Part shown: positions 18,543 to 53,473 of the stretch, one piece after another | How positions within the stretch are numbered: the first letter of the stretch is position 1 | Layout: every line of letters begins with the position of its first letter | Virus record (IMG/VR): IMGVR_UViG_3300033141_004453 | Coordinates: 1-55,936 of that record | DNA from: a virus | Lineage: Duplodnaviria; Caudoviricetes | Reading direction: 5' to 3' (one strand) | DNA: 55,936 nucleotides | Program-made: the position numbers and the translations under genes | The notes under the pieces: generated by a model | What the model was told of the DNA's origin: nothing | Seen by the model: only the letters and a program-made list of their open reading frames with translations | The model's database searches: none

Positions 18543-19711
18543 AAACAATTTGGTACTTTCCATTAGAAATTGTAAAAAGTAGATATACTAAACAGTTATG
18601 TAACTACTGGATACCGGATGGTATAAATAAATGTAAACAACATAATGATAAATTTGAGATAATAAAAGGCCAAAGTATTGATACTAATATTAAAGTAGGT
18701 CAGGTCTTGGATGCGACAGGACGAGGTATTTATAGTTTAACACAAGTTTCTAATTTTTTAAAAAAAATTAGAGCAGGCGATGTAAAAGATGGTGATGTTC
18801 TATATATACAGGATTTTTGGACACCAGGAATTGAAGCGATATTTTATGCTGTTGATTTGTACAATATAAAATTACATATCTACTCAATGGTTCATGCCCA
18901 AAGTGTTGATAAATATGATTTTACATATCCAATGAGAAAATGGATGAGACCTATTGAACTGGGCTATGATAAAGCACATCAATATGGTGGATTATTTGTT
19001 GCTTCAAGTATTCATAAGAAACAACTACGCAGTGCAGGATTTACTTCACCTATTCATGTTGTTAGTTTGCCTTTTGGTATTGATGAAGTTAAAGAACGTA
19101 TTAAAAATATTCATAGAAATACAGAAAAAGCAATCATATTTTCATCAAGACTTGATAAAGAAAAAAATCCAGAGTTTATGCTTAAAGTTGCAAAAAAATT
19201 TCTTGATAAATATAAGGATTGGAAATTTTATGTTACAACTTCAGGAAAGGAAATCAGAAGTAATCAAAAAGGTATAATCAAAAAAATAAGAAATTTTTCT
19301 AAAAAAAATAAAAGATTTATAATCAAAGAAGGTATTTCAAAAAATGAATATTACAAACTTCTTTGTAAATGTAAGATACAACTTAATACCTCATTACAAG
19401 ATTATGTTAGTTGGACTGTAATTGAGGCAAGTATTTGTGAATGTGATTTATGTTATCCAAATTTTAGAAGTTTTCCTGAATTTATGCCAAAAGATAGAAT
19501 GTATAGACCCTGGAATGTTTCTGATGTGTTAAGAACAATAAAAGATTGTATAGATAATCCAAAACAACACAAATGGATAGCAGAGATTTCAGATTATGGA
19601 AGATTGAAGGAATGTAAAATCATATGTAATGGTAGTAAAAAAGAAATAAATATATGGAAAGAAAAAAATAGATTTATAAAGAAAAAATGCAATTTAAAAT
19701 CCCAAAATTAA
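18539..19711 (+). CDS. GT-B (GT4-like) glycosyltransferase
   Basis: FSSRLDKEKNP, SLQDYVSWTVIEA, YPNFRSFPE. Confidence 0.8.
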   Translation: MKTIWYFPLEIVKSRYTKQLCNYWIPDGINKCKQHNDKFEIIKGQSIDTNIKVGQVLDATGRGIYSLTQVSNFLKKIRAGDVKDGDVLYIQDFWTPGIEAIFYAVDLYNIKLHIYSMVHAQSVDKYDFTYPMRKWMRPIELGYDKAHQYGGLFVASSIHKKQLRSAGFTSPIHVVSLPFGIDEVKERIKNIHRNTEKAIIFSSRLDKEKNPEFMLKVAKKFLDKYKDWKFYVTTSGKEIRSNQKGIIKKIRNFSKKNKRFIIKEGISKNEYYKLLCKCKIQLNTSLQDYVSWTVIEASICECDLCYPNFRSFPEFMPKDRMYRPWNVSDVLRTIKDCIDNPKQHKWIAEISDYGRLKECKIICNGSKKEINIWKEKNRFIKKKCNLKSQN

Positions 19712-20832
19712 AAAGTAGAAATATTCCTGTATGTAGTATAAGTATAGTAACTTCAGATACAAGTTGGTGGAGAAAATCATCACCATTTGTTTATCCAAAC
19801 TTGTTAGTGAATCTCATGGACTGTAATAAAAAAGAGCAGATAGATAAGATAAAAGAAGATACAGATAAGGACCTATTTTTATTAACAGATAGTGGTGGAT
19901 TTCAAGTTGGAGCAGGAACATGCTCATTAGACTGGAAAGAATCATTGTTAAGACAAATAAAAATTGGTGCAAGTAAAATATTTTCATTTGATACTCCAAC
20001 TATTAAAAAAAGGTCCACAACTACATTAGTTAATTTTACTTATATGGATAATGAAGAAGCATTTCATGTTATAGAAGAGAATTTAAAAGTTGCATTAAAA
20101 CAATCAGAGTTTTTAAAAACAAACTATCCTAATGAATTTGAAAAATTTTGTTACATTTTACATGGAAAATCTATGGAACAAATTGATTTTAACTTTACTT
20201 TATTTGATAAATACTTAGGAAGTATAGAAAACTATTCAAAATATTTTCCAGGAGGTATTGTTTATGGACTAAAGCAAGATGATTTGTTATATATGACAAT
20301 AGCAGCAAGACACGCATATGAAAATTTTATCAAAAAAGGAATTTATGTCCATTTTTTAGGTATGGGAAGTCCATTTAGAATGATATGTTTAATTAGAAAT
20401 AAAATAACAACATTTGATTCTTCAAGAGCCTTACAAGGAGTAAGAGCAAACCAGTTTGTTAATCCGTTTAATATATCTAACTTTATCCAATTTAAATCAG
20501 ATTGTAGTCAATTTACTAGAAATTTCTGTATGTGTCCAGCATGTTACAATATAAACTATGAAACCTTATTAAAACAAAAAGATATTCAAAAAATCAGACA
20601 AGCACTTGTAAATCATAATGTTTGGTGGTACACAATGATAAATATTTTTTTAGATGCTTTGTCAGAAAAAGAATATACTAAAATGGTATTAAAAAATCTC
20701 AAAGTAAGTAAAGAAACAATAAGAAGCCTTGAATTTTGTGACTATGCCGACCAAGTAGGATTTGATACTGCTTATAAAAAATATAAACACTATCTTAAAA
20801 AAGATGAAACTAAACAGAAAAAAATATTCTAA
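19687..20832 (+). CDS. dpdA: TGT-fold guanine transglycosylase (DpdA-like, probably DNA-modifying)
   Basis: DSGGFQ, FDTP, ILHG, VHFLG, FDSS, zinc site CMCPAC...HN. Confidence 0.8.
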   Translation: MQFKIPKLKSRNIPVCSISIVTSDTSWWRKSSPFVYPNLLVNLMDCNKKEQIDKIKEDTDKDLFLLTDSGGFQVGAGTCSLDWKESLLRQIKIGASKIFSFDTPTIKKRSTTTLVNFTYMDNEEAFHVIEENLKVALKQSEFLKTNYPNEFEKFCYILHGKSMEQIDFNFTLFDKYLGSIENYSKYFPGGIVYGLKQDDLLYMTIAARHAYENFIKKGIYVHFLGMGSPFRMICLIRNKITTFDSSRALQGVRANQFVNPFNISNFIQFKSDCSQFTRNFCMCPACYNINYETLLKQKDIQKIRQALVNHNVWWYTMINIFLDALSEKEYTKMVLKNLKVSKETIRSLEFCDYADQVGFDTAYKKYKHYLKKDETKQKKIF

Positions 20833-27928: not shown

Positions 27929-28142
27929 AAAATCAGCCGCAGAACTTGAAATGGAGGAATTACTGAAAAAATGCGAGAACATAATTAATCATAATTATCT
28001 GACAATAGAAGATGCAAATAAAATCATAAAAGCTGGATATAAGTTATTGATGAAATGCGAGGAATTGAGATTATCAAGAGATAGATGGAGAGAGAAATAT
28101 AAGGAAATTAAATTAATTAAATTAAAAAGGGAGGAAAAATGA
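27918..28142 (+). CDS. hypothetical protein
   Basis: ORF track. Confidence 0.55.
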   Translation: MKTEKSAAELEMEELLKKCENIINHNYLTIEDANKIIKAGYKLLMKCEELRLSRDRWREKYKEIKLIKLKREEK

Positions 28143-28294
28143 AAGGACTTGGAAGAATGGGCGGACCTTTTGCAGCAGGACCTAATGGAAATTGTGTATG
28201 CCCTAAATGTGGATACAAAAAACAACACCAGATTGGAGTTCCGTGCTATCAAATGAAATGCCCAAAGTGTGGTTCTCAAATGACAAGAGCGTAA
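28139..28294 (+). CDS. small Gly/Cys-rich metal-binding protein (51 aa)
   Basis: translated by hand: MKGLGRMGGPFAAGPNGNCVCPKCGYKKQHQIGVPCYQMKCPKCGSQMTRA; GGAGG SD. Confidence 0.75.
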   Translation: MKGLGRMGGPFAAGPNGNCVCPKCGYKKQHQIGVPCYQMKCPKCGSQMTRA

Positions 28295-28303
28295 TTAAAT
28301 AAA

Positions 28304-28463: not shown

Positions 28464-28760
28464 ATGAATGCTATAGATGAAAGAAGTTTTAATTTTAGAA
28501 AATCACCTTCCCTACAACATAAAGTTAGGGTCATAGTAGGAACACAAGAAAATCCAATATCATATGGAGTAACAATACCTGATTTTATTGCCAAACAATT
28601 TTCTGGCTGTTTGTTGAGAATTTATACATCTGGTACATCAATTATAATGGAAAGTGGTTGTAAGCTCACACCACATGATATAAATCTTGATAAGAAATTT
28701 TGTTTTGATGGAATGAGATTATATTCAGATACTAATGGTGATATAAAATGGATAAAATAA
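28464..28760 (+). CDS. possible AbrB-like regulator
   Basis: KVRVIV...SYGVTIPDFIAK pattern. Confidence 0.45.
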   Translation: MNAIDERSFNFRKSPSLQHKVRVIVGTQENPISYGVTIPDFIAKQFSGCLLRIYTSGTSIIMESGCKLTPHDINLDKKFCFDGMRLYSDTNGDIKWIK

Positions 28761-29926
28761 AATTGTTATGGTTAAGTGATAGTCCTTTTACTTGTACAGG
28801 TTATGCAACAATTTCTCGTAATATTCTTAATAGACTTCAAGATATGGGATATGATTGTTATTATCAGGCTCATAATTTTTTTGGCCAAGATGTTCATAAT
28901 GCGAAATTTGGTGATGGAGAGGAGTTGAAATTTATAACATTGGGAACAGGTGTAAAACCTTATAGTGAAGATTTACTAGTTCCAAGAATTAGAGATTTGA
29001 AACCAGATATTTTTGGTGTACTGCTTGACACGTTCATGCTCTACCCGTGGTATATGAATTATGATTATGCTCCTGCCAAAACCTTATTTTACTTTCCATC
29101 TGACGGCGAAGGTGGTCTTCCTCTTAATTGCGAAAATATTTTAAGGAAGTGTAATTATCCAGTAGCTATGAGTAAATTTGCCCAGAACCAAGTTAAAACA
29201 AGTTACAATCTAAACACATCCTATATCCCACATGCTGTTGATACTTCTATTTTTTATCCTCTATCGTATAAAGAAAAGGAACGAATAAAAGAATCTTGGG
29301 GATTGAAGGGTAAGTTTATTGTTGGTAGTGTGTTTAGAAATCAAGGAAGAAAAATGGCAGATAGATTATTGAAAACATTTGCCATTTTTGCTAAAAAGCA
29401 TGAAGATGCTGTCCTATTTTTACACACTGATTTATTTGATAATGCCGCAGTTTTTGACTTAAGAGTACTTGTTTATAGATTGGGGATTATGAATAGAGTT
29501 GTATTTAGTGGAATGAGATTTTTTAGAGGTTTTGATTACAAAAAAATGAATGATGTGTATAATTTAATGGATGTGTTCTTTTTATCTACTTCAGGTGAAG
29601 GATTTGGAATACCAACTATAGAAGCAATGAGTTGTGGTATTCCATGTGTTGTGACAGATTACACTACAACAAAAGAATTATTAATAGATGATGGAAAATG
29701 TGGTGAAGCAGTACCAATAGTAAGTGAATTAACAGGAAGTTGGACAGTTGAAAGAGGAATTATGGATATTAACAAAGGTGTTGAAGCACTAGAAAAGTTG
29801 TATAATGATGAAAAATTAAGAAAGGAATATGGATTAAGAGGAAGAGAAAAGGTGTTGAAAAAATATGATTGGAATGTTGTAATTAAAGACTGGGACAAAT
29901 TATTAAGGAGGATTGTCAATGAGTAA
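28748..29926 (+). CDS. GT4 glycosyltransferase
   Basis: LSDSP...TGY, IPHAVD, RNQGRK, EGFGIPTIEAMSCG. Confidence 0.92.
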   Translation: MDKIKLLWLSDSPFTCTGYATISRNILNRLQDMGYDCYYQAHNFFGQDVHNAKFGDGEELKFITLGTGVKPYSEDLLVPRIRDLKPDIFGVLLDTFMLYPWYMNYDYAPAKTLFYFPSDGEGGLPLNCENILRKCNYPVAMSKFAQNQVKTSYNLNTSYIPHAVDTSIFYPLSYKEKERIKESWGLKGKFIVGSVFRNQGRKMADRLLKTFAIFAKKHEDAVLFLHTDLFDNAAVFDLRVLVYRLGIMNRVVFSGMRFFRGFDYKKMNDVYNLMDVFFLSTSGEGFGIPTIEAMSCGIPCVVTDYTTTKELLIDDGKCGEAVPIVSELTGSWTVERGIMDINKGVEALEKLYNDEKLRKEYGLRGREKVLKKYDWNVVIKDWDKLLRRIVNE

Positions 29927-31145
29927 GGTATTTTTAGTTAGTCCATCGGAAAAAGGAATTTTAGAAGATGCAGGAGATAGACCACCATTAGGTATAGCAT
30001 ATATTGGAGGATATTTAAGAGAAAATGGACATGATGTTAGGTTGTATGATATGAACCACATACATATTGATGAATTGGTGTTGGATGTTAAGGAAGAGAA
30101 GCCAGATGTTGTAGGTGTATCTCTATATACTTCTCCACTTTATTATAATGGGATGAATTTAGGTAAGGTTATAAAACAAGTTAATCCAGAAGTAAAGTTA
30201 GTCGCAGGCGGATATCATTCTACAGTTATGCCTGAGAGTACATTCCCTATTTTTAATCAAGTTGTTTTAGGTGAAGGAGAATATGCAATGGAAAAGATAG
30301 CAAGAGGAGATGAAAGTGAGATTGTTGTCGGTTCACTAGTAGATTTAGTATCACTACCAAAACCAGCAAGGGATTTACTACCAATGGAGAAGTATAACAT
30401 GATGCAAAAAGGTAAGAGAACAGCTACTGCTCTCACTTCAAGAGGTTGTCCTAATGCTTGTGCTTTTTGTGGAAATCTACCTTATAATAAGAAAGTTAGA
30501 TTTACACCTATTAACAAAATTACAAGTGAATTAGAAGAGTTGGTAGATTTAGGATATGAAGGAATTTATTTTTATGATGAGTTATTCACTGCTAATAAAG
30601 AAAGAGTAAAAAAACTAACAGATAGAATAAAAGGAATGGGATTAAGTTATAGAATTGCAACAAGAGCGGATAAGTTAGATAAGGATATTGCAAAATGGCT
30701 TGGTGATAGTGGATGTGAGATAGTAAGTTTAGGTATTGAGAGTGGTAATGATTATATATTAAGAAAGGTACGAAAGAGAATGACAACATCTCAAAATAAA
30801 GATGCTGTAAGGATGTTAGCAGAAGAAGGAATAGATGTAAAGGGGTTTTTCATAATAGGTCTGCCTGGCGAAAGTTATGAAACAGCAAGACAAACAATTG
30901 AGTTTGCAGAAGAATTAAAAAAAGAAGGTCTTACATTTGCTGATTTCTATCCACTTGTACCTTTTCCTGGAAGTCCTATTTTTAATAATCCTAAAAATTT
31001 CGGAATAAAAATCATTGACAAAAATTGGGGCAATTATTGTCAAGCAGGAGTTAGTGAAATTAAATCTGTAGTAGAAACAGAATACTTAAAAGCAAATGAA
31101 ATTAAATCATTAGTAGAGGAAGCAAAAAGTAGATGGAAAAGTTAG
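29919..31145 (+). CDS. cobalamin-binding radical SAM enzyme (class B methyltransferase-like)
   Basis: PPLGIAYI, GGYHST, GEGE, SRGCPNACAFC, GIESG, FFIIGLPGE. Confidence 0.92.
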   Translation: MSKVFLVSPSEKGILEDAGDRPPLGIAYIGGYLRENGHDVRLYDMNHIHIDELVLDVKEEKPDVVGVSLYTSPLYYNGMNLGKVIKQVNPEVKLVAGGYHSTVMPESTFPIFNQVVLGEGEYAMEKIARGDESEIVVGSLVDLVSLPKPARDLLPMEKYNMMQKGKRTATALTSRGCPNACAFCGNLPYNKKVRFTPINKITSELEELVDLGYEGIYFYDELFTANKERVKKLTDRIKGMGLSYRIATRADKLDKDIAKWLGDSGCEIVSLGIESGNDYILRKVRKRMTTSQNKDAVRMLAEEGIDVKGFFIIGLPGESYETARQTIEFAEELKKEGLTFADFYPLVPFPGSPIFNNPKNFGIKIIDKNWGNYCQAGVSEIKSVVETEYLKANEIKSLVEEAKSRWKS

Positions 31146-32437
31146 TTGTAGTTATTATGGGACAAGATTGTGAGAAGTTTATAGGTATGTGTTTTGAAAG
31201 TGTTAAGAGTGCAGATGCTATTGTTTACTGTGATGGAGGAAGTACTGATAATACATTAAAAATTTTAAAACAAAAAAATTTTGAATTTGTTGAAATTGGT
31301 AAAGAAAACAATCATAACTTACTAATCATAAAAAACAAATATGACCAAAAGGATGTAAGAATGAATGGAAAACAAAGAAATTTTTATTTAAAATATTTAA
31401 AGGAGAATTATAAGGGCTGGTGGGCATTATGTTTAGATGCAGATGAAGTAGTAGAAGATTTATCTAAAATTAAATTTTTCATAAGTGTTCTTCCAAAGCA
31501 AAATCATGATATTTTATTTAGTGTGAAAATGAGACATTTTATAGGAAATTTAGGGCATGAAGATGCAACACAATCAATTCATTTTGTTCCACATAGATTA
31601 TTCAAAGTAAGAGATGACTTGGTTTATGATGAAGTAGAGCATCCAATTCTTTGGTTGAAAGATAAAGAAAAAACAAAAAATGCAAATGTTCAACCTACAG
31701 TAATTTGGCACCTTGCCTACCTTTCTGGAATGTGGGATATAAAAAAGAAATACAAAAACCATTTAATGAAATCAAATATACACACAAGAGAATTTTTGAT
31801 TAGTTGGAGAAATGCACACTTATTTGGACAATATCCAAGAAAACCTATAAACCCACTTGAAATTCCTGAAATAATTTTAAACAATTTTGGAATTGAAAAA
31901 GAAGAATTATACTGGAATCCAAGAATGCAAATAGAAACAAAACATTTTTTGATGGCAAAACAATGGACATCTAATTTACCAACAACAGCAAAAATATTAG
32001 ATGTAGGTTGTGGCGTAGGACATTATGGATATGTTTTAAAATCTTACTTAGGGTTGTATGAATATATAGGAATTGATAAAAGTAAATGGATAATTGAAAA
32101 TACACCATATAAAGATTTAGATATGAGATATATGGACATAACAAAAGGAATTGCTCTTCCTGATAGTGATTATGATTTGGTATTATGTATAGATGTATTA
32201 GAGCACCTTGAAGAAAAAGATTTAGATAAAACATTACAAATTATGTCTTTATTAGGAAAGAAATTTATCTTCTCAATTTGTTATGAAAATGACCCAAATT
32301 GGCCATTAGACCCTACACATAAAATAAAAGAAAGTAAAGAATGGTGGATTAACAAATTATTAAAGTATTTTGAAATTAAAGATGCACCAAGAAATTGGTT
32401 ATATTCAAATCAAATTTTGATAGGAGAGAAGAAATGA
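31133..32437 (+). CDS. GT2 glycosyltransferase fused to class I SAM methyltransferase
   Basis: DGGSTDNT, LDADE, VEHP; C-terminal LDVGCGVG, DVLEHL. Confidence 0.88.
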   Translation: MEKLVVVIMGQDCEKFIGMCFESVKSADAIVYCDGGSTDNTLKILKQKNFEFVEIGKENNHNLLIIKNKYDQKDVRMNGKQRNFYLKYLKENYKGWWALCLDADEVVEDLSKIKFFISVLPKQNHDILFSVKMRHFIGNLGHEDATQSIHFVPHRLFKVRDDLVYDEVEHPILWLKDKEKTKNANVQPTVIWHLAYLSGMWDIKKKYKNHLMKSNIHTREFLISWRNAHLFGQYPRKPINPLEIPEIILNNFGIEKEELYWNPRMQIETKHFLMAKQWTSNLPTTAKILDVGCGVGHYGYVLKSYLGLYEYIGIDKSKWIIENTPYKDLDMRYMDITKGIALPDSDYDLVLCIDVLEHLEEKDLDKTLQIMSLLGKKFIFSICYENDPNWPLDPTHKIKESKEWWINKLLKYFEIKDAPRNWLYSNQILIGEKK

Positions 32438-32586
32438 CAAGAGAAGATAATCCAAAAGCGGGTATTACAAAAAGAGAAATAAAAAAAGGGTCAACTGGAA
32501 TAATTTTGGAAGAGAAATATTTATCAGTGGAAGGAGAAAATTTATCAAAAGTTAAAAAAGTATTTGAGGAGGAATGGGAAAAATGA
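32434..32586 (+). CDS. small hypothetical protein
   Basis: ATGA overlaps on both sides. Confidence 0.45.
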   Translation: MTREDNPKAGITKREIKKGSTGIILEEKYLSVEGENLSKVKKVFEEEWEK

Positions 32587-33281
32587 AATTAGCAGTTGGC
32601 TTAATCATAAAAAATGGAGAACAATTTGTTGATAAATGGATAAAATCAGCAGAAAGAATTGCTGATATATTTTTAATAGTAGATAATGGTTTAAAAGAGG
32701 GAGAAAGGAAGAGGCTTATGAATCATTCAAAAACAAAACAATACTTAATCCAAAAAAACATGGGAAGGAATCAAAGTAGAGACTATCAGAAAATTCTAGA
32801 GATGGCAAGGGAAGAAAATTGTGATTGGGTTTGGAATTTAGATATTGATGAATATGTTCCTGAAATTGATATCAACCAATTCAGATTTTACTTACTTAAT
32901 TGTGAAGATGAAAGTATTGGATTTCCATTATTTGAAATGAGGAATGATGACAAACACTACATAGCGGTAAAAGATACAGATGGAAAGTATAAACATGCAA
33001 GATTGTGCCATAAATGTTACAAAGTTTTGTCACATCTTGAATTTGATAGAAGAGATATACACGGAAAATCAATTCCTCATAACTGCAAAACAGGAAAAGC
33101 AATAAATGTCCTTATACAACATTTTGGCCATTATACAAAAGAATTAAGAGAAGAAAAAAGGAAACAATATGAAGGAACAAGTTTCAAGGACTTAAATGAA
33201 CAAAATGCTCCTTGGTTAGAAGAGGATGAAGACAAAATTATAATAAAAAGATGGGAGGATAGAGAATGGGAAAGAAAATAG
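32583..33281 (+). CDS. GT2-like glycosyltransferase
   Basis: IVDNG, WVWNLDIDE, IQHFGH. Confidence 0.82.
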   Translation: MKLAVGLIIKNGEQFVDKWIKSAERIADIFLIVDNGLKEGERKRLMNHSKTKQYLIQKNMGRNQSRDYQKILEMAREENCDWVWNLDIDEYVPEIDINQFRFYLLNCEDESIGFPLFEMRNDDKHYIAVKDTDGKYKHARLCHKCYKVLSHLEFDRRDIHGKSIPHNCKTGKAINVLIQHFGHYTKELREEKRKQYEGTSFKDLNEQNAPWLEEDEDKIIIKRWEDREWERK

Positions 33282-34228
33282 TAGCATATATAAGAGGTGG
33301 ATTAGGAGATGTTTGGCCTGCTGTTTCAGCTATAAAATCAATAATGGACAGAGAGAAAATAAACAAACAGTATGTTTTTGTTTTAAGTGATAGTGTGTAT
33401 TATTTTAGAGATTATTCACAACAACTTTCAGAATACTCTATACAAATGCTTCATAAGCTAACCAATAACATAATAACAATCCCTCCTTGTTTAAATGATA
33501 ATTTTTGGTTAAGAAAGAATGGAAAAATTTTTGATGATACAACAAGTGAACTGTCACAAGAGGAAGCAGATAAATACATAAATGAATTTATGTTCTGGAG
33601 GCCAAACAAATTAAAAAACTTTGTAAGTAGATTTATAGATAAAAATACAATCTTTATTGATGCTTTATTTACTGAATGTATTGTAGTTTTAAAAGAGGGT
33701 AAGTTTGAAAGGATTGGAAATGAAAGAGCTGTTTTTGAGTTCAATCCTCCACAATTTGAAAAATCTATTTTGGATGGAATACTTGAGATAAGTTCATTAG
33801 TAATACATGTAAGAAAAAAGAATGAAGGTGATAGTTATAGAGAAAGTAGTGAATTCTATAACAAAATCATAAAATGGTGTAATGAAAATAACATAATGCC
33901 GATACTTATAGGAACAGATAAAGATAGATATGAAGGAAAGGCATATGATTTAAGAGGTAGTAATATCTTAAGTTTTGAAGGAATGGCTTATTTGATTGAT
34001 AAATGTAAAATTATGTTAGGCAACGATAGTGGATTTTCTGCAATCAAATTATATCAACAGCAAAAAGATAAATTGTTGATTATGAACTATCCAAGATGGG
34101 AAAGGAACAGCTGGTATTTTAGGCCATTTAACGGAAGTGAGAATGTAAAGAATTGTTTGTTACTGAATGCTAATGAAGATAATTTCATAAAGATAACTAA
34201 AACAATCAAAGAGTTTTATGGAAGATAA
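33266..34228 (+). CDS. GT9/GT11-like (heptosyl-/fucosyltransferase-like) glycosyltransferase
   Basis: RGGLGD, VIHVR, LGNDSGF. Confidence 0.7.
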   Translation: MGKKIVAYIRGGLGDVWPAVSAIKSIMDREKINKQYVFVLSDSVYYFRDYSQQLSEYSIQMLHKLTNNIITIPPCLNDNFWLRKNGKIFDDTTSELSQEEADKYINEFMFWRPNKLKNFVSRFIDKNTIFIDALFTECIVVLKEGKFERIGNERAVFEFNPPQFEKSILDGILEISSLVIHVRKKNEGDSYRESSEFYNKIIKWCNENNIMPILIGTDKDRYEGKAYDLRGSNILSFEGMAYLIDKCKIMLGNDSGFSAIKLYQQQKDKLLIMNYPRWERNSWYFRPFNGSENVKNCLLLNANEDNFIKITKTIKEFYGR

Positions 34229-35330
34229 AAGACAGATGGACGGAACAAAAGCCCTATGGCATATGGATAGAATTATCCAACATTATGATAGAGGTGAAAG
34301 GATTCCCCCTGTTCATATTGATTGGGGGCTAACTAAAATTTGTAATATTGATTGTATTTATTGTTATGGTAAGTATCAAAGTTCTGCTATTGGTCAACAT
34401 GGGATTAATGCTATATTTCAAAAAGATGCACTATTAAGTGCTCTTAGAGAAGCAGGAAAAGAAGGAGTAAGAAGTGTAGCATTTATAGGTGATGGTGAGC
34501 CAACTTGTAATCCTGCTTGGAAAGAAGCAATGTATGTTGGAAAAAATAGTGGTTTAGATTTAGCAATATCCACGAATGGAGTGTTAGTTGATAATGATGA
34601 AGCAAGACGAGCAATTTTGGATAATGCAACTTGGATGAGATTTTGTTTATCTGCTGGAACAAGAGAGGGTTACAAAAAAATTCACAGAAGAGATAAATTT
34701 GATGTTGTTGTGAAAAATATTGAACAGTTAGTTAATATGAGAGATAGATACAATTATAAAACAGATATTGGGTTACAATCTGTTTTTGTTCCTACTTTAA
34801 TGGCAGAGGAGATGGTTAAAGAAAGTGAATTAGCAAGAAAAATAGGTGTTGATTATTTTGTAATTAAACAATGTTCATTACCTGATGAAGGACAATCTGG
34901 AATGATGCAGTTTGATTTAAAAGATTATGATAAACCACATATAATTGATACACTAAAAAAATGTGAGGAGATGTCCAATGATAGAACAAAAATTGTTGTA
35001 AAGTGGCAGGCTATAAAAGGAAAAGGTAAGAAGAATTATTCTGGATGTTTAGCAGTTCCTCTAATTAGTGAAATAAGTGGAAATGGTGATTGGTATCCTG
35101 GCGGTTGTATGTTTGGTAATAAGATGTATGATAATTTAAAATTTGGAAACCTACACGAAAAAGGGTTTTCAGAAATTCTAAATTCAGAGAGGTATTGGAG
35201 TATCATACGACAGATGAAAGATTATGATGTTAGAAATAGTCCTGCATGTAGGGGTGCTTGCAGATTAGACCCTGTGAATCAGTTTGTATATAAGTATTTA
35301 AATAAACCAAAAGGTATTAATTTTATATAA
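34218..35330 (+). CDS. radical SAM enzyme with SPASM/twitch domain
   Basis: CNIDCIYC, GDGEP, STNG, G.WYP..C, FGNL, CRGAC. Confidence 0.9.
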   Translation: MEDKRQMDGTKALWHMDRIIQHYDRGERIPPVHIDWGLTKICNIDCIYCYGKYQSSAIGQHGINAIFQKDALLSALREAGKEGVRSVAFIGDGEPTCNPAWKEAMYVGKNSGLDLAISTNGVLVDNDEARRAILDNATWMRFCLSAGTREGYKKIHRRDKFDVVVKNIEQLVNMRDRYNYKTDIGLQSVFVPTLMAEEMVKESELARKIGVDYFVIKQCSLPDEGQSGMMQFDLKDYDKPHIIDTLKKCEEMSNDRTKIVVKWQAIKGKGKKNYSGCLAVPLISEISGNGDWYPGGCMFGNKMYDNLKFGNLHEKGFSEILNSERYWSIIRQMKDYDVRNSPACRGACRLDPVNQFVYKYLNKPKGINFI

Positions 35331-36058
35331 TGTTAAATAAAGACCTAAGAAGAAGAATAATTGAGGAAGGATATAAAAGAAAACACGGACACTATGGTAG
35401 TAGTATGAGTTGTGTAGATGTTGTAAAATTTTTGTATGATAGAGTATTAACTGATGATGATATCTTCATAATGTCAAAAGGACATGGTGCGCCTGCTCTA
35501 CATGCAGTCTTAGAATCAAAAGGAATAACTCCTCCGTGGACAATTCATAATGAATATGATGAAAAGAAAGGAATTAGTGCAACAACAGGAAGTTTAGGCC
35601 AAGGACTTTCAGTTGCATTAGGAAGAGCCTATGCAAAGCAACTGAAAGGAGATAAAGGAAAAGTGTATTGTTTAGTAGGTGATGGTGAATTGCAAGAAGG
35701 AATGGTTTGGGAATGTTTGAATATAGCAAGTAAATTTAATATTCATAATTTAATAACATTAGTGGATTATAATAAATATCAAGCGATATCTTCAGTTAAA
35801 GAAATAATGAATGAAGACCATAGAACTATAAAAAGGAAGTTAGAAGCATTTGGATGTTATGTAACACAATTGGATGGGCATAGCAATGAAAGTTTAGAAG
35901 AATTACTACAACTTCCAGCAGAAATGTTAAATGGAGTTATACTACATACACAAAAAGGAAAAGGAATTCCTGTTTTAGAAAAAAATCCATCGTTCCATGT
36001 ATACTACTTTCACGAACACCCTGAAGATATGAAGGAGGCACTGGAGTATTTAAAATGA
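35330..36058 (+). CDS. transketolase-like ThDP-binding N-terminal subunit
   Basis: GHYGSSMS, SKGH, TGSLGQGL, GDGELQEG..WE, DYN. Confidence 0.92.
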   Translation: MLNKDLRRRIIEEGYKRKHGHYGSSMSCVDVVKFLYDRVLTDDDIFIMSKGHGAPALHAVLESKGITPPWTIHNEYDEKKGISATTGSLGQGLSVALGRAYAKQLKGDKGKVYCLVGDGELQEGMVWECLNIASKFNIHNLITLVDYNKYQAISSVKEIMNEDHRTIKRKLEAFGCYVTQLDGHSNESLEELLQLPAEMLNGVILHTQKGKGIPVLEKNPSFHVYYFHEHPEDMKEALEYLK

Positions 36059-36336
36059 TATTAGAAACAATTTTTTTGTGGATTGGAGGATTGTTATGTA
36101 TGGGATTAGTTGTTGTAGGTTTAATGTGGGTTGTTTCTTGGATTTATAATCATACAATTTATCATTGGATAGAAGCAAAAAGTATTGTTTATGCTTTGTT
36201 TAGTAGAATACTTGAAAAGAAAAATAACACAAATTATAAACAATTACAATTGAAGGAAGGAACTGAATGGTATACGAGATTTAAAAATAAACGTTATTTA
36301 TGGAAAGTAATTAAAGTAGAGGATATTAAAAAATGA
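36055..36336 (+). CDS. membrane-anchored hypothetical protein
   Basis: N-terminal hydrophobic helix. Confidence 0.6.
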   Translation: MILETIFLWIGGLLCMGLVVVGLMWVVSWIYNHTIYHWIEAKSIVYALFSRILEKKNNTNYKQLQLKEGTEWYTRFKNKRYLWKVIKVEDIKK

Positions 36337-36803
36337 GATATAGTTTTGGAGTTCAGTTAGCAGAAGAAATGAAGAGAGACCCAAAAATTCATCTACTTGT
36401 GGCTGACATAGGATTTGGAGTATTTGATACAATTAAGGAAAAATATCCTAATAGATTACATAATGCAGGAATAGCAGAACAAGCAGTAGTTGGAATGGCT
36501 TCTGGAATGGCTATGGAAGGGTTAATTCCTGTTGTATATACCATTACTCCTTTTTTATTAGAAAGGCCTTATGAATCAATTAAACTTAATGTAATGCAAC
36601 AGAAACAAAATGTCAAACTTGTTTCATATGGTGATTATCCTGATTTAGGACCTACTCATATAACTTCAGATTTAGAGGGTTTATGTAAGTGTCTAAAAAT
36701 TCCATTACTCAAACCTAACTCTGCTGAAGAAACTATTCAAATGACAAGAGATATGTTCAAACATAAATATCCTGTATTTATGTATTTATCAAAAGCAAAA
36801 TGA
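36333..36803 (+). CDS. transketolase-like pyrimidine-binding subunit (no C-terminal domain)
   Basis: ADIG, NAGIAEQ..VGMASGMA.EG, FLLERPYE.IK, GPTH. Confidence 0.9.
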   Translation: MRYSFGVQLAEEMKRDPKIHLLVADIGFGVFDTIKEKYPNRLHNAGIAEQAVVGMASGMAMEGLIPVVYTITPFLLERPYESIKLNVMQQKQNVKLVSYGDYPDLGPTHITSDLEGLCKCLKIPLLKPNSAEETIQMTRDMFKHKYPVFMYLSKAK

Positions 36804-37333
36804 AAGAACATATAAGTAAAGGTGATAAAGAGGCATTAAACAAAATTATACAAACATATAACATCAAATCTGTTTTTGAAATTGGAACTTGGGAAGGTGC
36901 AACTTCTTTATTTTTTTGGAACAATCCCATTGTAAAAAGAGTTAAAACAATTGACATTCATAAAGAGATGGGAATTGATTATATACATAATATCCACAAA
37001 CTACAAAACAAGGAATTTTATGGCAAATACATAAAAAATACCGGTGTTGAATTTGAATTTTGCGATAGTATGAAATACAATCCTAAAGATGGAGAACAAT
37101 ATGATATGGTATTTATTGATGGAAATCATAATTATAATTATGTTAAAAATGACACTGAATTGGCATTTAAACTAAATCCAAAACTAATTGTTTGGCATGA
37201 TTACAATTCAGAAGGAAATGAAGATGTTCTAATTTTTGTAACAGAATTACAAAAACAATTGAAAAAAATCAAAGTATGTGATAATAGTAATATAGCATTT
37301 TTGGAGGTGAGAACTAATGATAAAAATTCCTAA
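36800..37333 (+). CDS. class I SAM-dependent O-methyltransferase (Methyltransf_24-like)
   Basis: FEIGTWEG, VFIDGNHNY..V..D, WHDY. Confidence 0.85.
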   Translation: MKEHISKGDKEALNKIIQTYNIKSVFEIGTWEGATSLFFWNNPIVKRVKTIDIHKEMGIDYIHNIHKLQNKEFYGKYIKNTGVEFEFCDSMKYNPKDGEQYDMVFIDGNHNYNYVKNDTELAFKLNPKLIVWHDYNSEGNEDVLIFVTELQKQLKKIKVCDNSNIAFLEVRTNDKNS

Positions 37334-38168
37334 AGAATATAATTATGCAGAAGCATACTTTACTTTGAGATGTAATTTTAACTGTGATTATTGTATAAAC
37401 GATAAGGATGGCATCAAGAGAAATAGGAATGAATTAACACCTAAACAATGGGCTGAAGGACTAAACAAAATTGATTTTGGTAATGTTAGTTTAACAATTG
37501 GTGGAGGAGAACCAACAATTAGAGGTAAGGATTTTTATGAATTGTTAGATTTAATAAAACCAGAAACAAAAATTGACTTACTTACAAATTTAAGTTTTGA
37601 TGTAGATGAATTCATAAGGCGAGTAAAGCCATCAAGATTTACAACACCAACCAAACCTTTCTACCACCCTATAAGAGTGAGTTATCATGTAAATAATACT
37701 GACCAGGATACAACTATTGAAAAAGCCAAAAAATTACAAGAGAATGGATTTGGAATTGGAATCTTTGGTTTATCACATCCTTACTACATTAATAACAATA
37801 TGGAAATGGCCTGGAAATGTAATAGAGCTGGTGTTCCTTTCTACACAAAAGATTTTTTAGGCGAGGTAGATGGAAGAATGTATGGATTTTTTAAATATCC
37901 AAAAGGATTAGATGGCATAGTTAAAAATGCGATTTGCAGAACAAGAGAATTATTAATTGGACCAGAAGGAAATATTTATAGGTGCCATAGAGATTTGTAT
38001 CATGCTGAAAATCCTATTGGAAACATCACAAAAGATTTCACAATTGAGTATAGATTTAGAGGATGTAAGAATTATGGGTTATGTAATCCTTGTGATGTTA
38101 AACTTAAAACTAATAAATTTTTAAGGGAGGTAGAATGTCAAGTAGAGATAAAACAAACTATGCAATAA
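37317..38168 (+). CDS. radical SAM enzyme with C-terminal Cys cluster
   Basis: CNFNCDYC, GGGEP, LTN, G.IYRC, C...C.PCD. Confidence 0.88.
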   Translation: MIKIPKEYNYAEAYFTLRCNFNCDYCINDKDGIKRNRNELTPKQWAEGLNKIDFGNVSLTIGGGEPTIRGKDFYELLDLIKPETKIDLLTNLSFDVDEFIRRVKPSRFTTPTKPFYHPIRVSYHVNNTDQDTTIEKAKKLQENGFGIGIFGLSHPYYINNNMEMAWKCNRAGVPFYTKDFLGEVDGRMYGFFKYPKGLDGIVKNAICRTRELLIGPEGNIYRCHRDLYHAENPIGNITKDFTIEYRFRGCKNYGLCNPCDVKLKTNKFLREVECQVEIKQTMQ

Positions 38169-39031
38169 CAGGAAACAAAGGTTTAATTGGAACATACTTG
38201 AAGGAAAGATTAGACAAAGAAGGATATAATTGTGTGTTACAAATAGATAAAAGAGAAGGTTTTGATATTATGGACTTAATGTTTAAAGATGTTCAACTAA
38301 CTGAAATCCCTGATATATTTTTTCATTTTGCTGCACAGTGTAAGATTAATGAGGCAATAGCACATCCTATCCTCCCTCATAAGAACAATGTTGATGGGAT
38401 ACTTTCAGTTTTAGAGTTTTGTAGAAAACATCAGATACCAAGGATAGTAACTGCTTCATCATCAAGAGTTCTAAGTCCAGAACGAAACCCTTATGTAGCA
38501 AGTAAAATCTACTTAGAAGAATTGGTTAAAGCATACACTGATTGTTATAATATGCAACACATCATCATAAGACCTTCAACAGTTTATGGCCCTATGAAAG
38601 ATGAAACTTCAAGATTAATGAGTAACTGGATAACATCTGCACTAAAAGGTGAAGATTTAAAGTTATATGGAGATAGAACAAAAACATTAGATTTCACTTA
38701 TATAGATGATTTTATTGATGGAGTTATGTTAACTTTGAGAGGAAGATGGAACAGGACATATAACATAAGTGGTGGTGAAGAAGTAAATTTATGGTGGCTT
38801 GCACATAATATCATTGAACAAGCTAATAGTAGTAGTAAAGTTGTGGAACTGCCTGCTGAAAAAGCACAACCACAACATGTAAGAGTGAAAACATCAAGAA
38901 TTAGAAAATTGGGATTTAAGCCAAAAGTAAGGATTGAAGATGGAGTCAAAAAGATGTTAGATTTTTATAGAACTCATCCAAAAGAATTGGAAGAATATGA
39001 AGATAAAGGAGCACAATTTTATGGAAGATAG
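38135..39031 (+). CDS. NAD-dependent nucleotide-sugar epimerase/dehydratase/reductase (extended SDR)
   Basis: TGNKGLIG, HFAA, ASSS, YVASK, RPSTVYGP, DFTYIDD. Confidence 0.92.
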   Translation: MSSRDKTNYAITGNKGLIGTYLKERLDKEGYNCVLQIDKREGFDIMDLMFKDVQLTEIPDIFFHFAAQCKINEAIAHPILPHKNNVDGILSVLEFCRKHQIPRIVTASSSRVLSPERNPYVASKIYLEELVKAYTDCYNMQHIIIRPSTVYGPMKDETSRLMSNWITSALKGEDLKLYGDRTKTLDFTYIDDFIDGVMLTLRGRWNRTYNISGGEEVNLWWLAHNIIEQANSSSKVVELPAEKAQPQHVRVKTSRIRKLGFKPKVRIEDGVKKMLDFYRTHPKELEEYEDKGAQFYGR

Positions 39032-39860
39032 AATAACAATACATATAGCAACAAAAGATAGACACACAGAATTAATGCTCTTACTTCAAAGTTTAAGAGA
39101 ACAAACATTTCAAGATTTTGATATAATAATTTTAGATGATGCTTCTGGAACACCAATAACACAACCTTACTTCCTTTCAAATATGCTTAATCAACTAAAA
39201 TTAGAGAATCATAGATTGAAACTATTAAGAAACAATCAAAGTTTTGGTTGTTGCTATGCCAGGAATCAGTTAATTGATGAAGATAGGTTTGGTAATTCCT
39301 TTGTTTTAAGATTAGATGATGATGTTATTTTAGAAAAAGAGTATATAAAGAAATTGTTAGATGTGATAGATAAAGGATATGATATGGCAAGTGGTGTAAT
39401 TCCGAGTTTTGGATTACCACCAGTAAAAAGAAAAATTGAAGCAGTGGGGAGTATAATTAATGAACATAAATTTGATAAAGAAGGAAATTTAATTTTGAAT
39501 AATGATGATTGTGGATTTTGTTACCTATCTGAAGCTATACTCCCAACCCACCAATTCCGTACAAATTGTTTATACAAATCTGAAATACAAAAAAAAGTAA
39601 GGTATCCTAATAATCTCACATCGGTTGCTTTTAGAGAGGAAGGATTTTTTAGCATTGGGGCAATTTTAGAAGGTTATAAAATTGGTGTTTGTACAACAGC
39701 AGTTGCTTGGCATTTGAAGTGCCCAAGTGGAGGTAATAGAAGAGTTGACTATAGTGAATGTGTTAAAATAGATGATGAAATTTTTAGAAAGTGGCTAAAG
39801 AAAAAATTTATAGAAAAAGGAGATTTTTTAACTAAATACAACAATGAAGTATTAAAATGA
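39021..39860 (+). CDS. GT2 glycosyltransferase
   Basis: IATKDR, ILDDAS, ARN, RLDDD, REE. Confidence 0.88.
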   Translation: MEDRITIHIATKDRHTELMLLLQSLREQTFQDFDIIILDDASGTPITQPYFLSNMLNQLKLENHRLKLLRNNQSFGCCYARNQLIDEDRFGNSFVLRLDDDVILEKEYIKKLLDVIDKGYDMASGVIPSFGLPPVKRKIEAVGSIINEHKFDKEGNLILNNDDCGFCYLSEAILPTHQFRTNCLYKSEIQKKVRYPNNLTSVAFREEGFFSIGAILEGYKIGVCTTAVAWHLKCPSGGNRRVDYSECVKIDDEIFRKWLKKKFIEKGDFLTKYNNEVLK

Positions 39861-40993
39861 AACTTAATATAGTTGGCAGTCTTTTTGGAGTTACGGGCTA
39901 TGATATTCATACTAGAAATCTTTTTAATGCCCTCTATCAAATAATGCCACAAATAAAATTGGATGTTCCAAGACCACAAGGTTGGGAGTTGTTATGTAAT
40001 GATGCAGAGATAAATGCACTAACAAATAACTTTCCAATTGAAGATTGTATAACAATTGCTATTATGACTCCACCATTTTGGAAAATGGCTTTGGCAGACA
40101 ATCCTAAACATTTCGTAGGGTTTTTAGTTTGGGAAGGAGATGTTTGCCCTACTTATTGGCTTGAATACCTTACCAATAATAAAGTAGATATGATATTTGT
40201 CCCTTCTGAACATACTAAACAAGCAATTCTAAACACTATAAAAAGATATGAAAAAGGAAAAAATGAGTTAGAACTAACAGAAAAACAATTAGAAAGAATA
40301 AGAGATAAAATTAGAATAGTTCCACATGGTGTTGATTTAAATTTATTCAAACCTAAAAATAAATCACATGATAAATTTACTTTTATTTGTAATAAAGGAT
40401 GGCGTGGAGGGTTAGAAGATAGAGGTGGAGTAGGTTATGTTATTAAGGCATTTGCGGAAGAATTTAGGAAAGATGAGGATGTAGAATTAAACATAAAACT
40501 AAATCCTGCTTATATCAATCCTGACCAGATTAATGATGAAATCAAAAAACTCCAACTTCCTGAAGATAGACCGCAGATAAAAATTAATTGTGAAAACATC
40601 AATTATAAAGATATGTATAAGGTTTATGAAAATGGTGATTTATTTATTTGTGCAACAAGAGCAGAAGCATTTAACATTCCAGGATTAGAAGCAATGGCAT
40701 GTGGACTACCTACACTACAAACAAACTATGGAGGACAATTAGATTATATGAATGAAGGTAATAGTTGGAAGATAGAAGTAGAAAAAATGGAAAAGGCAAA
40801 AGAAGTGGCATATGAGGAAGTTCAATGGGCTATTCCAAGTTTTGAAGACTTAAAAAGAAAAATGAGGTGGTGTTTTGAAAATAAAGAAAAAGTAAAAGAA
40901 AAAGGAAAACAAGCATCAAAAGATGTTCAAGAATGGACATGGCATTACAGCGCAAAAAAAGCATTAAACTATCTTAATCAACTGCCTTTCTAA
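39857..40993 (+). CDS. GT4 glycosyltransferase
   Basis: TGY, VPSEH, VPHGVD, EAFNIPGLEAMACGLP. Confidence 0.92.
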   Translation: MKLNIVGSLFGVTGYDIHTRNLFNALYQIMPQIKLDVPRPQGWELLCNDAEINALTNNFPIEDCITIAIMTPPFWKMALADNPKHFVGFLVWEGDVCPTYWLEYLTNNKVDMIFVPSEHTKQAILNTIKRYEKGKNELELTEKQLERIRDKIRIVPHGVDLNLFKPKNKSHDKFTFICNKGWRGGLEDRGGVGYVIKAFAEEFRKDEDVELNIKLNPAYINPDQINDEIKKLQLPEDRPQIKINCENINYKDMYKVYENGDLFICATRAEAFNIPGLEAMACGLPTLQTNYGGQLDYMNEGNSWKIEVEKMEKAKEVAYEEVQWAIPSFEDLKRKMRWCFENKEKVKEKGKQASKDVQEWTWHYSAKKALNYLNQLPF

Positions 40994-50776: not shown

Positions 50777-50915
50777 TTTTTGCCTCCACTTTCCCTTCTT
50801 TTTTAGGAGTAATCAATTCATAATCCCCAGAATCTATAAGATGTTTTACATCTTTTTCCTCTACATCTACTATCATTCCATATGGTTGATGTTTTCCAAT
50901 ATATCTCAATTCCAT
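50742..50915 (-). CDS. small hypothetical protein (57 aa)
   Basis: MELRYIGKHQPYGMIVDVEEKDVKHLIDSG...; TAATG coupling; not in ORF track. Confidence 0.6.
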   Translation of the reverse strand: MELRYIGKHQPYGMIVDVEEKDVKHLIDSGDYELITPKKEGKVEAKNVISKRTTSRS

Positions 50916-53460: not shown

Positions 53461-53473
53461 ATCATTTACCATC

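Follow-up and report, generated by a model that had tools for sequence, protein, structure and literature searches.

Several viruses make glycans for their own particles. The capsid glycan of the chlorovirus PBCV-1 and the fibril glycan of Mimivirus are atypical, methylated, virus-encoded structures that are assembled in the cytoplasm independently of the host, and chlorovirus A064R is a multidomain glycosyltransferase-glycosyltransferase-methyltransferase. To our knowledge, no radical S-adenosylmethionine (radical SAM) or thiamine diphosphate (ThDP) steps occur in these pathways. Among tailed viruses, virion glycosylation in mycobacteriophages of the Che8 type was reportedly shown experimentally by Freeman et al. 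in 2023, and the cyanophage P-SSM2, whose genome is 252 kb, carries sugar gene clusters. Mycobacteriophages are described as glycosylating their own virus particles in a citing passage of PMC12619734, and P-SSM2 is credited with 24 putative sugar/lipopolysaccharide (LPS) genes of unknown role in an excerpt of PMC1079782. Here an operon for a tailored glycan is described in the virus record IMGVR_UViG_3300033141_004453 (Duplodnaviria; Caudoviricetes; CheckV completeness 93%). The whole record of 55,936 nt was analysed and is called the window. The operon lies at positions 28748-40993 and takes up 12,246 nt, or 21.9% of the window.

The region contains 14 plus-strand open reading frames (ORFs) of at least 80 amino acids, which overlap one another by 1-35 nt. 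The single gap of 137 nt (32437-32574) is bridged by a 63-aa ORF (32395-32586, with a 64-aa counterpart of 41% identity at the equivalent position in the relative G002). This is one tightly overlapping operon of true viral origin. An earlier note, made from the sequence alone, had described one coupled operon of about 22% of the window, encoding two GT4 and three GT2 glycosyltransferases, a B12 radical SAM protein, two further radical SAM proteins, a split transketolase, a methyltransferase and a short-chain dehydrogenase/reductase (SDR). The operon was borne out, and Pfam and NCBIfam searches recovered the enzyme list nearly item by item. To this list can be added a 93-aa ORF between the transketolase genes, the lack of a transketolase C-terminus, an extra glycosyltransferase at 18539-19711 and a small, possibly AbrB-like opening gene.

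Like the Che8-type mycobacteriophages, this is a tailed virus with its own glycosyltransferases. In those phages the glycans sit on the capsid and tail tube and are made in the cytoplasm with no membrane machinery; for the present virus a virion target is a proposal. Che8-type phages differ in using few glycosyltransferases, in lacking such sugar-synthesis chemistry and in infecting bacteria, and their glycosylation is an experimental result, whereas here it is predicted. The chlorovirus A064R protein is analogous to the fused GT2-methyltransferase of the operon, but the chloroviruses and Mimivirus infect eukaryotes and have giant genomes of 330 kb to 1.2 Mb, while the module here fills 22% of a 56-kb genome and combines a frame with a variable interior across its lineage. 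P-SSM2 is likewise a tailed virus with multi-gene sugar clusters; its genome is several times larger and its clusters are read as host-surface modification in the part of PMC1079782 concerned. The earlier note had called the pathway far more elaborate than known tailed-virus systems; with the 24 sugar/LPS genes of P-SSM2 (PMC1079782, same excerpt) that claim needs tempering, although the P-SSM2 genome is much the larger. The articles searched, their supplementary tables excepted, contained only general remarks on single glycosyltransferases in viruses of archaea, the candidate phyla radiation (CPR) and DPANN, and no description of such a cassette was found in them. Self-encoded glycosylation of virus particles (in mycobacteriophages, chloroviruses and mimiviruses) and the sugar clusters of P-SSM2 are already known. 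What is new is how much of a small genome the pathway occupies, that its sugar chemistry uses radical SAM and ThDP enzymes, that the host is probably archaeal and that an architecture of fixed frame and swappable interior extends across the lineage.

This architecture was uncovered by comparison with relatives. A search with the major capsid protein (MCP) found 46 relatives in a viral contig collection, and three long ones were compared whole: G001 (62.9 kb), G002 (61.0 kb) and G003 (57.4 kb, terminal repeats). In all three the module occupies the same junction, with the Cas4-like and 355-aa genes ahead of it and tail-fibre genes behind it. The module proteins are 27-74% identical in these genomes, similar to the portal, terminase and polymerase. 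The best conserved module gene is that of the first transferase, GT4a (28748-29926; Pfam Glycos_transf_1, 63 bits; 55-68% identical in G001-G003). An alignment profile of GT4a led to 37 viral loci, and the same module is present in every long relative examined. The single B12 radical SAM protein found no locus and the single GT4a protein found one; it took the GT4a alignment to reach the family. In the 37 loci, ORF calling was mechanical and labels came from blastp matches to annotated seeds. In 23 loci the module is complete (GT4b downstream of GT4a inside a 10-kb flank, which limits longer modules), and these counts include three near-identical pairs.

In all 23 complete modules a GT2 gene stands just before GT4b, and in 20 of them a GT2-methyltransferase is present. 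The B12 radical SAM gene occurs in 9, the SPASM radical SAM gene in 8 and the SDR gene in 7. In length these complete modules run from 3.5 kb (GT4a, a single small ORF, GT2 and GT4b) up to 11 kb; those of the window, G001 and G002 measure 12.2, 14.4 and 15.3 kb. The module is thus a conserved frame, GT4a ... GT2-GT4b, usually with the GT2-methyltransferase, around a swappable interior. In the window the frame transferases after GT4a are the GT2 fused to a class I SAM methyltransferase (31133-32437; Glycos_transf_2 at residues 12-147, Methyltransf_31/25/11 at residues 282-414; 36-56% identical in G001-G003), the GT2 that always precedes GT4b (38997-39860; Glycos_transf_2, 58 bits; 41-63% identical) and GT4b itself (39857-40993; Glycos_transf_1, 41.7 bits; 48-49% identical), with which the operon ends. 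Radical SAM genes always lie between the frame transferases.

Interiors vary even among close relatives. G001 and the window share the GT2-like, GT9-like, SPASM, transketolase, methyltransferase and SDR genes, but at the place of the third radical SAM gene G001 has a PfkB sugar kinase and a cytidylyltransferase-like gene, and it also carries an additional methyltransferase and a gene with weak LicD-like similarity. In five loci, G002 among them, there is a block of an E1-type ThDP enzyme, a 182-aa protein, a cupin and a GDP-mannose 4,6-dehydratase; G002 additionally has two B12 radical SAM genes and a short-chain dehydrogenase. In G003 a mannose-6-phosphate-isomerase-type cupin and a ClpP-like protein are found. 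Other interiors hold a DegT aminotransferase, UDP-Glc/GDP-Man dehydrogenase, GHMP kinase, sulfotransferase, pyruvyl transferase, ATP-grasp protein, methyltransferases of the FkbM/TylF/CmcI types, further GT2s and HNH endonucleases. By family assignment, this matches the gene content of a surface-glycan locus. The exotic sugars that had been proposed are supported by the radical SAM, ThDP and methyl-transfer enzymes of the window and by sulfo, pyruvyl and amino tailoring in the relatives. HNH endonuclease genes lie inside modules at L061:4308-4643 and L081:11283-11969, and the cultured phage S-CBS4 also has one beside its glycosyltransferase trio; they may help shuffle interiors. At the downstream end of another module (L080:8667-10491) there is a protein with a SAMP2-like (ubiquitin-like modifier) N-terminus next to a ThiF-family E1-like enzyme.

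The glycosyltransferases are encoded by the virus and inherited with it: six are present in the operon, the frame recurs in 37 viral loci, and GT4a co-diverges with the capsid. Across 10 genomes, pairs that are more alike in GT4a also tend to be more alike in MCP (Mantel r 0.61, reached by 19 of 5000 permutations). Five further long contigs with GT4a were tested and all belong to the same MCP lineage (5/5), while all four MCP-bearing contigs of at least 41 kb have GT4a. Among 401 genomes sampled from the candidate host phylum, the GT4a profile matches only 2, one of them through a binned viral contig. The nearest ESM-Atlas clusters are 79-100% viral, some of them from Nucleocytoviricota, and GT4a belongs to a virus-specific group of GT4 enzymes. 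G+C content is about 30% across the whole window and the operon region shows no compositional break. Synteny, the co-divergence of GT4a with MCP and the rarity of GT4a in candidate hosts together indicate that the module is an old inherited part of the virus lineage. A host-derived or misassembled island, which the earlier note had named as one outcome that would overturn its proposal, does not agree with these results.

The module contains no recognizable membrane machinery. In a Kyte-Doolittle hydropathy test with a 19-residue window (KD19), which is crude, none of the cluster enzymes reaches 1.6 and none has a predicted membrane helix, in line with the soluble enzymes that had been claimed. 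The 93-aa ORF at 36055-36336 in the module of the window is of membrane type, with a hydrophobic N-terminus (KD19 2.48 over residues 1-32). In 31 non-redundant related loci, 0 of 269 module ORFs have more than one hydrophobic segment; flippase, polymerase, transporter, priming transferase and oligosaccharyltransferase are therefore lacking, which extends the reported absence of a flippase and an oligosaccharyltransferase to the lineage. The membrane parts of Gtr-type seroconversion systems (flippase, bactoprenol-linked or polytopic transferase, acetyltransferase) were likewise not found in the module across the 31 loci. The module resembles O-antigen, capsule and archaeal N-glycan (agl) loci in its conserved flanks, hypervariable interior and tailoring families. 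Those loci have priming transferases, flippases, polymerases, transporters or an oligosaccharyltransferase, and the module here has none of these. The claim that a nucleotidyltransferase is absent holds for the module of the window, but relatives carry one at the equivalent place.

The first gene is preceded by that of a 98-aa protein (28464-28760, plus strand), which overlaps GT4a. Its homologues stand directly upstream of GT4a in 14 of the 37 viral loci, including G001 and G003. The predicted model has a beta-beta-alpha-beta-beta order with a mean pLDDT (predicted local distance difference test) of merely 65, and Foldseek returned nothing significant with it (best E 0.88), the weak rows including MazE, AbrB, VapB, C56 and C68. 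As a lead, the protein is a possible AbrB/MazE-type operon regulator. A TTTAAATA box and AAGGAG were seen by eye upstream of its gene. Just upstream of this putative regulator gene, the ORF at 28140-28295 has two CPKCG motifs and looks zinc-ribbon-like by eye.

The catalytic motifs are intact: all three radical SAM proteins have CxxxCxxC, the transketolase subunit has GDG...N and the GT2s have DxD. The B12 radical SAM protein (29913-31145) combines an N-terminal B12-binding domain (PF02310, 83 bits) with Radical_SAM (PF04055, 90 bits) and is by its domains a putative cobalamin-dependent class B enzyme, with CxxxCxxC at residues 179-186 (Cys 179, 183 and 186). Its closest solved relative is AprD4 (6fd2, E 1e-25), likewise a case of radical SAM chemistry on sugars, the likeness being at family level only. 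It stays under every NCBIfam equivalog cut-off, including that of BchE (132 against 481 bits); BchE and PhpK are among its top NCBIfam matches, both far under their cut-offs. It may be either a sugar C-methylase or an AprD4-like (sugar diol) dehydratase, C-methylation being equally possible because the strong B12-domain match is kept. The radical SAM protein with a SPASM auxiliary-cluster domain (34218-35330; Radical_SAM 56 bits, SPASM 27.5 bits) has its CxxxCxxC at residues 42-49 and is 50% identical in G001. The third, a small 283-aa protein (37317-38168; Radical_SAM 44 bits), has CxxxCxxC at residues 19-26 and a C-terminal cluster of Cys 250, 256, 259 and 274. It has 549 homologues, mostly unnamed and one labelled Pacearchaeota, and it occupies the place of the PfkB kinase and CTP_transf_like nucleotidyltransferase of G001. 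PDB searches with the SPASM and 283-aa proteins gave no informative relatives.

Two more transferases belong to the interior. The GT2-like enzyme (32574-33281), of GT-A type, matches Glyco_tranf_2_4 with E 7e-6 and 26.8 bits, below the cut-off of 27.5; it has DxD at residue 90 and is 62% identical in G001. The ORF at 33266-34228 had been called GT9-like. By sequence this could not be upheld: there is no Pfam, NCBIfam (E <= 0.01) or PDB match, and CAZy GT9 membership by sequence (Pfam Glyco_transf_9) is not supported. By fold it was. From 46 unannotated homologues an AlphaFold2 model with pLDDT 93 was obtained, and its top Foldseek matches are GT9 structures (3tov, 2h1h/2gt1 (WaaC), 1psw (WaaF) and 4rap (TibC)) with E 3e-9 to 4e-5 and TM scores of about 0.5. 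The protein is thus predicted, from its modelled fold, to be a GT9-like enzyme of GT-B type. No heptose-activating kinase or nucleotidyltransferase to go with it was found in the window.

The ThDP enzyme is of transketolase type and split over two genes. The pyrophosphate-binding (PP) subunit (35330-36058; Transketolase_N, 70 bits) is nearest to the split-chain transketolase 6yak (E 2e-33), with GDG...N at residue 117, and the pyrimidine-binding subunit (36333-36803) matches Transket_pyr with 68 bits over all its 156 aa. They are 70% and 74% identical in G001, respectively. The C-terminal transketolase domain was not found, the second ORF being fully Transket_pyr. The pair looks like a truncated, minimal variant, for which bona fide transketolase activity is not assured. 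The 93-aa ORF between the two genes is present in this genome only and has no homologue in G001-G003, where the transketolase genes abut. The following SAM methyltransferase (36800-37333; Methyltransf_24, 36 bits; weak Methyltransf_3) is probably a sugar O-methyltransferase; a paralogue in a relative also matches RMNT_CmcI, a rhamnosyl O-methyltransferase family. The extended SDR (38135-39031; Pfam Epimerase, 124 bits) has (4-)epimerases, RmlB and UXS as its nearest solved relatives, with GxxGxxG at residue 13 and YxxxK at residue 120. It has no Asp-Glu pair before the Tyr, which is typical of 4,6-dehydratases, and assignment as a 4,6-dehydratase was rejected on this motif. The SDR is read as a probable epimerase or reductase acting on a nucleotide sugar supplied by the host.

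ThDP-dependent two-carbon branching of 4-keto sugars is the chemistry of the YerE and AviB1-B2 type, and relatives of the window have a comparable block of dehydratase, cupin and E1-type ThDP enzyme. Such aminoglycoside and branched-sugar pathways differ in that they serve small-molecule antibiotics or O-antigen sugars in bacteria. ThDP enzymes recur in the lineage, being transketolase-type in the window, G001 and L083 and E1-type beside a dehydratase and a cupin elsewhere, and this recurrence argues for two-carbon transfer onto a sugar. The product would be either a higher-carbon sugar or a C-branched (deoxy)sugar. The former would draw on a transketolase product and the GT9-like transferase, joined in G001 by a kinase and nucleotidyltransferase pair that resembles HldE. 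A full route to heptose (sedoheptulose-7-phosphate from transketolase, then an HldE-like kinase/adenylyltransferase and GT9) fits G001 in part and is retained as no more than a possibility; in the window the kinase and nucleotidyltransferase are absent, no GmhA/GmhB-type genes were seen and the SDR is nearer to epimerases in general than to the heptose epimerase.

The following scheme is a prediction in its individual reactions, in their sequence and most of all in its acceptor. The frame transferases (GT4a, usually the GT2-methyltransferase, then GT2 and GT4b) would build a core glycan on a soluble acceptor in the host cytoplasm, adding at least three sugars. The interior would make and decorate unusual sugars, in the window by the extra GT2-like and GT9-like transferases, the SDR, the minimal ThDP enzyme, the three radical SAM proteins and the methyltransferase. 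The ThDP enzyme would transfer a two-carbon unit to give the higher-carbon or branched sugar. The acceptor would most likely be one or more virion proteins, of capsid or tail, and particles would leave the cell with a strain-specific glycan coat. That a tailored glycan, variable between strains, is assembled on virion proteins in the cytoplasm is the tentatively preferred reading, although it falls slightly short of being probable.

A virion target is favoured by a module that is a fixed trait of the lineage, not an occasional accessory, and that has no export parts, and by a GT4a from a virus-specific GT4 group. Five cultured phages carry a near-full-length, distant GT4a homologue (25-28% identity), and in three of them it lies inside the head gene block. 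The gene order is MCP, hypothetical, glycosyltransferase, ..., adaptor in Mae-JY09; MCP, glycosyltransferase, methyltransferase, GT2, neck in phiPsal1; and portal, hypothetical, glycosyltransferase, GalT, methyltransferase, ..., protease, MCP in S-CBS4. In TJE1 the homologue stands beside the small and large terminase genes (TerS/TerL) with a nucleotidyltransferase, an epimerase and a methyltransferase, and in S-EIVl it stands beside the primase. The head modules of phiPsal1, S-CBS4 and Mae-JY09, with their distant GT4a homologue, GT2 and methyltransferase, are like the frame described here, but they comprise only 2-3 genes and have no sugar-tailoring chemistry. We know of no lineage-wide variable-cassette structure in these three phages or in P-SSM2. 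In 6 of the 37 loci of the lineage the module comes after the tail genes, on their strand. By analogy with the gene neighbourhood in these distant cultured phages, virion proteins are the leading candidate for the target.

Several observations weigh against a virion target. The operon of the window is read in the same direction as the replication genes and converges on the tail genes, so late expression is not implied. In cells, soluble GT2 and GT4 transferases often use lipid-linked intermediates on the inner face of the membrane as substrates, so that the absence of membrane proteins is also compatible with a hijacked host export route. The homologues in cultured phages are distant (25-28%) and of putative function, and one of the five is away from structural genes. 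Lacking a sugar kinase and a nucleotidyltransferase, the module of the window must draw its nucleotide sugars from the host, and a genome-reduced DPANN host may supply few of them. A tblastn search of 50,697 phage records with GT4a (E <= 1e-8) matched 15 records, none of them from a Mycobacterium phage, so the Che8-type systems share no detectable homology with this transferase, the comparison with mycobacteriophage enzymes having covered GT4a only. No striking Ser/Thr-rich tail or sequon enrichment was found on the capsid, tail tube or tail proteins of the window. Sequon-rich proteins were observed in G001: a 497-aa head-region protein (L054:10761-12254, equal to G001 50761-52254) has 37 N-x-S/T sequons (7.4 per 100 aa) and a 1162-aa protein has 68. 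The window is without an equivalent of either, and the density could reflect Asn-rich repeats in an AT-rich genome.

The most serious alternative, a live though less likely one, is remodelling of the host envelope. The viral enzymes would feed or extend a lipid-linked glycan of the host (archaeal N-glycan or another surface polymer), which a host flippase and oligosaccharyltransferase would export, and the changed S-layer or surface glycan could block superinfection, prevent progeny from sticking or alter attachment between symbiont and partner. The best NCBIfam neighbours of the frame transferases, all far under their cut-offs, are indeed enzymes of lipid-linked pathways (PglJ, PglI, EpsD/E, WcaA, AglG); a hypervariable interior between conserved flanks resembles O-antigen and capsule loci; surface polysaccharides typically bear pyruvyl, sulfo and methyl groups; and the operon of the window runs with the replication genes. 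Single glycosyltransferases in CPR and DPANN viruses are read in this way in the relevant passages of PMC11310336 and PMC12647753, as are the 24 sugar genes of P-SSM2 in the excerpt of PMC1079782. Yet no priming phosphoglycosyltransferase, flippase, polymerase, ligase or oligosaccharyltransferase is present in the 31 loci (0/269 ORFs, by hydropathy), and a fifth of a 56-kb genome is a high cost for an accessory function. The module is fixed and vertically inherited in a seemingly lytic lineage, and no integrase was seen among the scanned ORFs, not all small ones being covered. Nor is it a copy of a host locus, given that GT4a-type genes are nearly absent in the sampled candidate hosts, and cultured phages have distant homologues within their head gene blocks. 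A soluble acceptor of another kind is improbable: a small molecule, protein or peptide (aminoglycoside-like or resembling a ribosomally synthesized and post-translationally modified peptide (RiPP)) that would be glycosylated for conflict with the host or competitors. It draws on AprD4, an aminoglycoside enzyme, as the best solved relative of the B12 radical SAM protein, on SPASM proteins and B12 radical SAM C-methylases being common RiPP maturases (with weak NCBIfam matches to several), on the small conserved 63-aa ORF in the operon, on the ClpP-like protease in the module of one relative and on GT4b, which barely reaches Pfam GT4-conflict (26.6 against a cut-off of 26; family context in part of PMC8195603). 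However, module scans found no scaffold-forming enzyme (cyclitol synthase, nonribosomal peptide or polyketide synthase) and no exporter, the small ORFs are not kept across the lineage, tailoring of nucleotide-sugar and polysaccharide type dominates the interior, and the minimal modules L082 and L089, with about three glycosyltransferases only, fit a macromolecular glycan better.

The earlier note had also allowed for a glycan on DNA, where all or part of it would sit on modified bases of the viral genome and evade restriction. Phage glycosyltransferases do attach mono- to trisaccharides, including heptose and Kdo, to 5-hydroxymethylcytosine according to the part of preprint 10.1101/2023.12.21.572611 concerned, and this virus has the DNA-modification genes FolE, QueD, a QueE-like radical SAM and a weak DpdA-like gene with an adjoining glycosyltransferase. 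The hydroxymethyl-pyrimidine acceptor is made, according to that preprint, by a ThyS-like hydroxymethylase or by a C5-methyltransferase plus 5mYOX, none of which was recognized by Pfam, PHROGs or NCBIfam among the scanned window ORFs of at least 200 aa. The deazaguanine genes are 8-14 kb away and common to G001 only, and DpdA-like genes occur in 3 of 37 loci, whereas the module is lineage-wide. Six glycosyltransferases with sulfo and pyruvyl variants far exceed known DNA glycans, which are trisaccharides at most in the passages available of preprint 10.1101/2023.12.21.572611, and the nearest relatives of GT4a are ordinary GT4 folds. A DNA target is thus very improbable. Least credible of all is a loose set of auxiliary metabolic genes with no single pathway, boosting host metabolism through pentose-phosphate flux by transketolase and a BchE-like cofactor role. 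Such radical SAM genes are labelled bchE-type auxiliary genes in viral surveys (in a passage of PMC13452462), and BchE is among the top NCBIfam matches here, at 132 bits against 481. Against this, the genes overlap within one operon, relatives replace the ThDP enzyme by an E1-type one beside GDP-mannose dehydratase and a cupin, radical SAM genes keep their place between the frame transferases, and the transketolase is without its C-terminal domain.

The host is likely a DPANN (Nanoarchaeota) archaeon, judging from sequence comparisons. Among 50,697 deposited phage genomes the family B DNA polymerase (PolB) and the large terminase (TerL) are closest to those of haloarchaeal tailed viruses, at merely 25-28% identity; together with the presence of PCNA these matches point to archaea. 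Close MCPs were found in contigs of four metagenome-assembled genomes (MAGs) with the titles Woesearchaeota, Pacearchaeota, Paceibacterota and Ignavibacteriaceae. GT4a is also present in three of these four, in the Woesearchaeota and Pacearchaeota MAGs on another contig than MCP. These MCP and GT4a contigs look like binned viral contigs, so the host link that they give is weak. In the phylum of the Pacearchaeota MAG the MCP profile matches 4 of 401 sampled genomes. Three of the four matches are distant and lie within contigs of 97-665 kb, beside portal, protease and fibre homologues and with no glycan module; in these provirus-like blocks (L108-L116; genomes G277, G246 and G174) the portal, protease, MCP and fibre genes are 22-38% identical to those of the lineage. 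By their gene content they look like proviruses. In the phylum of the Paceibacterota MAG the only match among 401 sampled genomes is the seed itself. The relatives of the window are free contigs, two with terminal repeats, and no integrase was seen among the ORFs scanned with Pfam, PHROGs and NCBIfam, several ORFs below 170 aa lying outside the scan.

In the window the minus strand carries portal, large terminase, tape measure, minor tail protein, MCP and a protease-like protein, and the plus strand carries a Sak4-like recombinase, the family B DNA polymerase, a Cas4-like nuclease, PCNA and an archaeo-eukaryotic primase (AEP)-like protein. The primase/helicase gene, unlike the other replication genes, is on the minus strand. 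The ORFs at 156-2003 and 12858-13982 had no match in the Pfam, PHROGs or NCBIfam scans. The capsid protein (52606-53511) is unusually conserved, with 49-82% pairwise identity over ten genomes and 82% to G001, whereas other shared proteins are mostly 35-65% identical. Just upstream of its gene, a 147-aa protein (53474-53917) is 86% identical in G001. A 7-deazaguanine DNA-modification set comprises QueD/PTPS (14726-15181), a QueE-like radical SAM (15156-15830), a phosphoribosyltransferase-domain protein (15827-16228), FolE (16931-17515) and a weak TgtA/tgt-like, possibly DpdA gene (19687-20832). QueC was not seen, and among G001-G003 the set is common to G001 only. The DpdA identity was not accepted, having weak NCBIfam TgtA/tgt matches alone and no Pfam, PHROG or PDB support. 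Directly upstream of this gene lies the further GT-B glycosyltransferase (18539-19711; Glycos_transf_1, 27 bits; phrog_2170), which has no homologue in G001-G003 and could act on DNA or on something else.

The coat proposed under the preferred reading, glycans on virion proteins, leads to a more specific suggestion. The lineage-wide cassette of three to four fixed transferases with a swapped interior might dress the virion in sugars that serve as bait or mimic those of the partner cell, to be caught by lectin-like adhesins of the DPANN host. This is a long shot. If true, adsorption through glycans would be a way of entry new to prokaryotic viruses, and the cassette a new source of sugar-modifying radical SAM enzymes.

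Whatever the target, the module offers uncharacterised sugar-acting radical SAM proteins, a minimal two-domain transketolase-type enzyme and a divergent GT9-like transferase. The frame of GT4a, GT2 and GT4b is a simple marker with which such cassettes can be found. Viral matches to 'bchE', 'transketolase' or 'glycosyltransferase' should not be taken singly as metabolic helpers; the operon context makes the B12 radical SAM gene part of a glycan operon, unlike the 'bchE' helper genes listed in the passage of PMC13452462. Should the virion carry the glycan, no self-encoded glycosylation system known from small tailed viruses would come close to this one in elaboration, and it would be the first of its kind in a lineage of archaeal tailed viruses. 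Coats with serotype-like variation would then be an old inherited trait of the lineage, not an occasional add-on, and the virus would bring its own sugar chemistry to hosts thought to be biosynthetically minimal.

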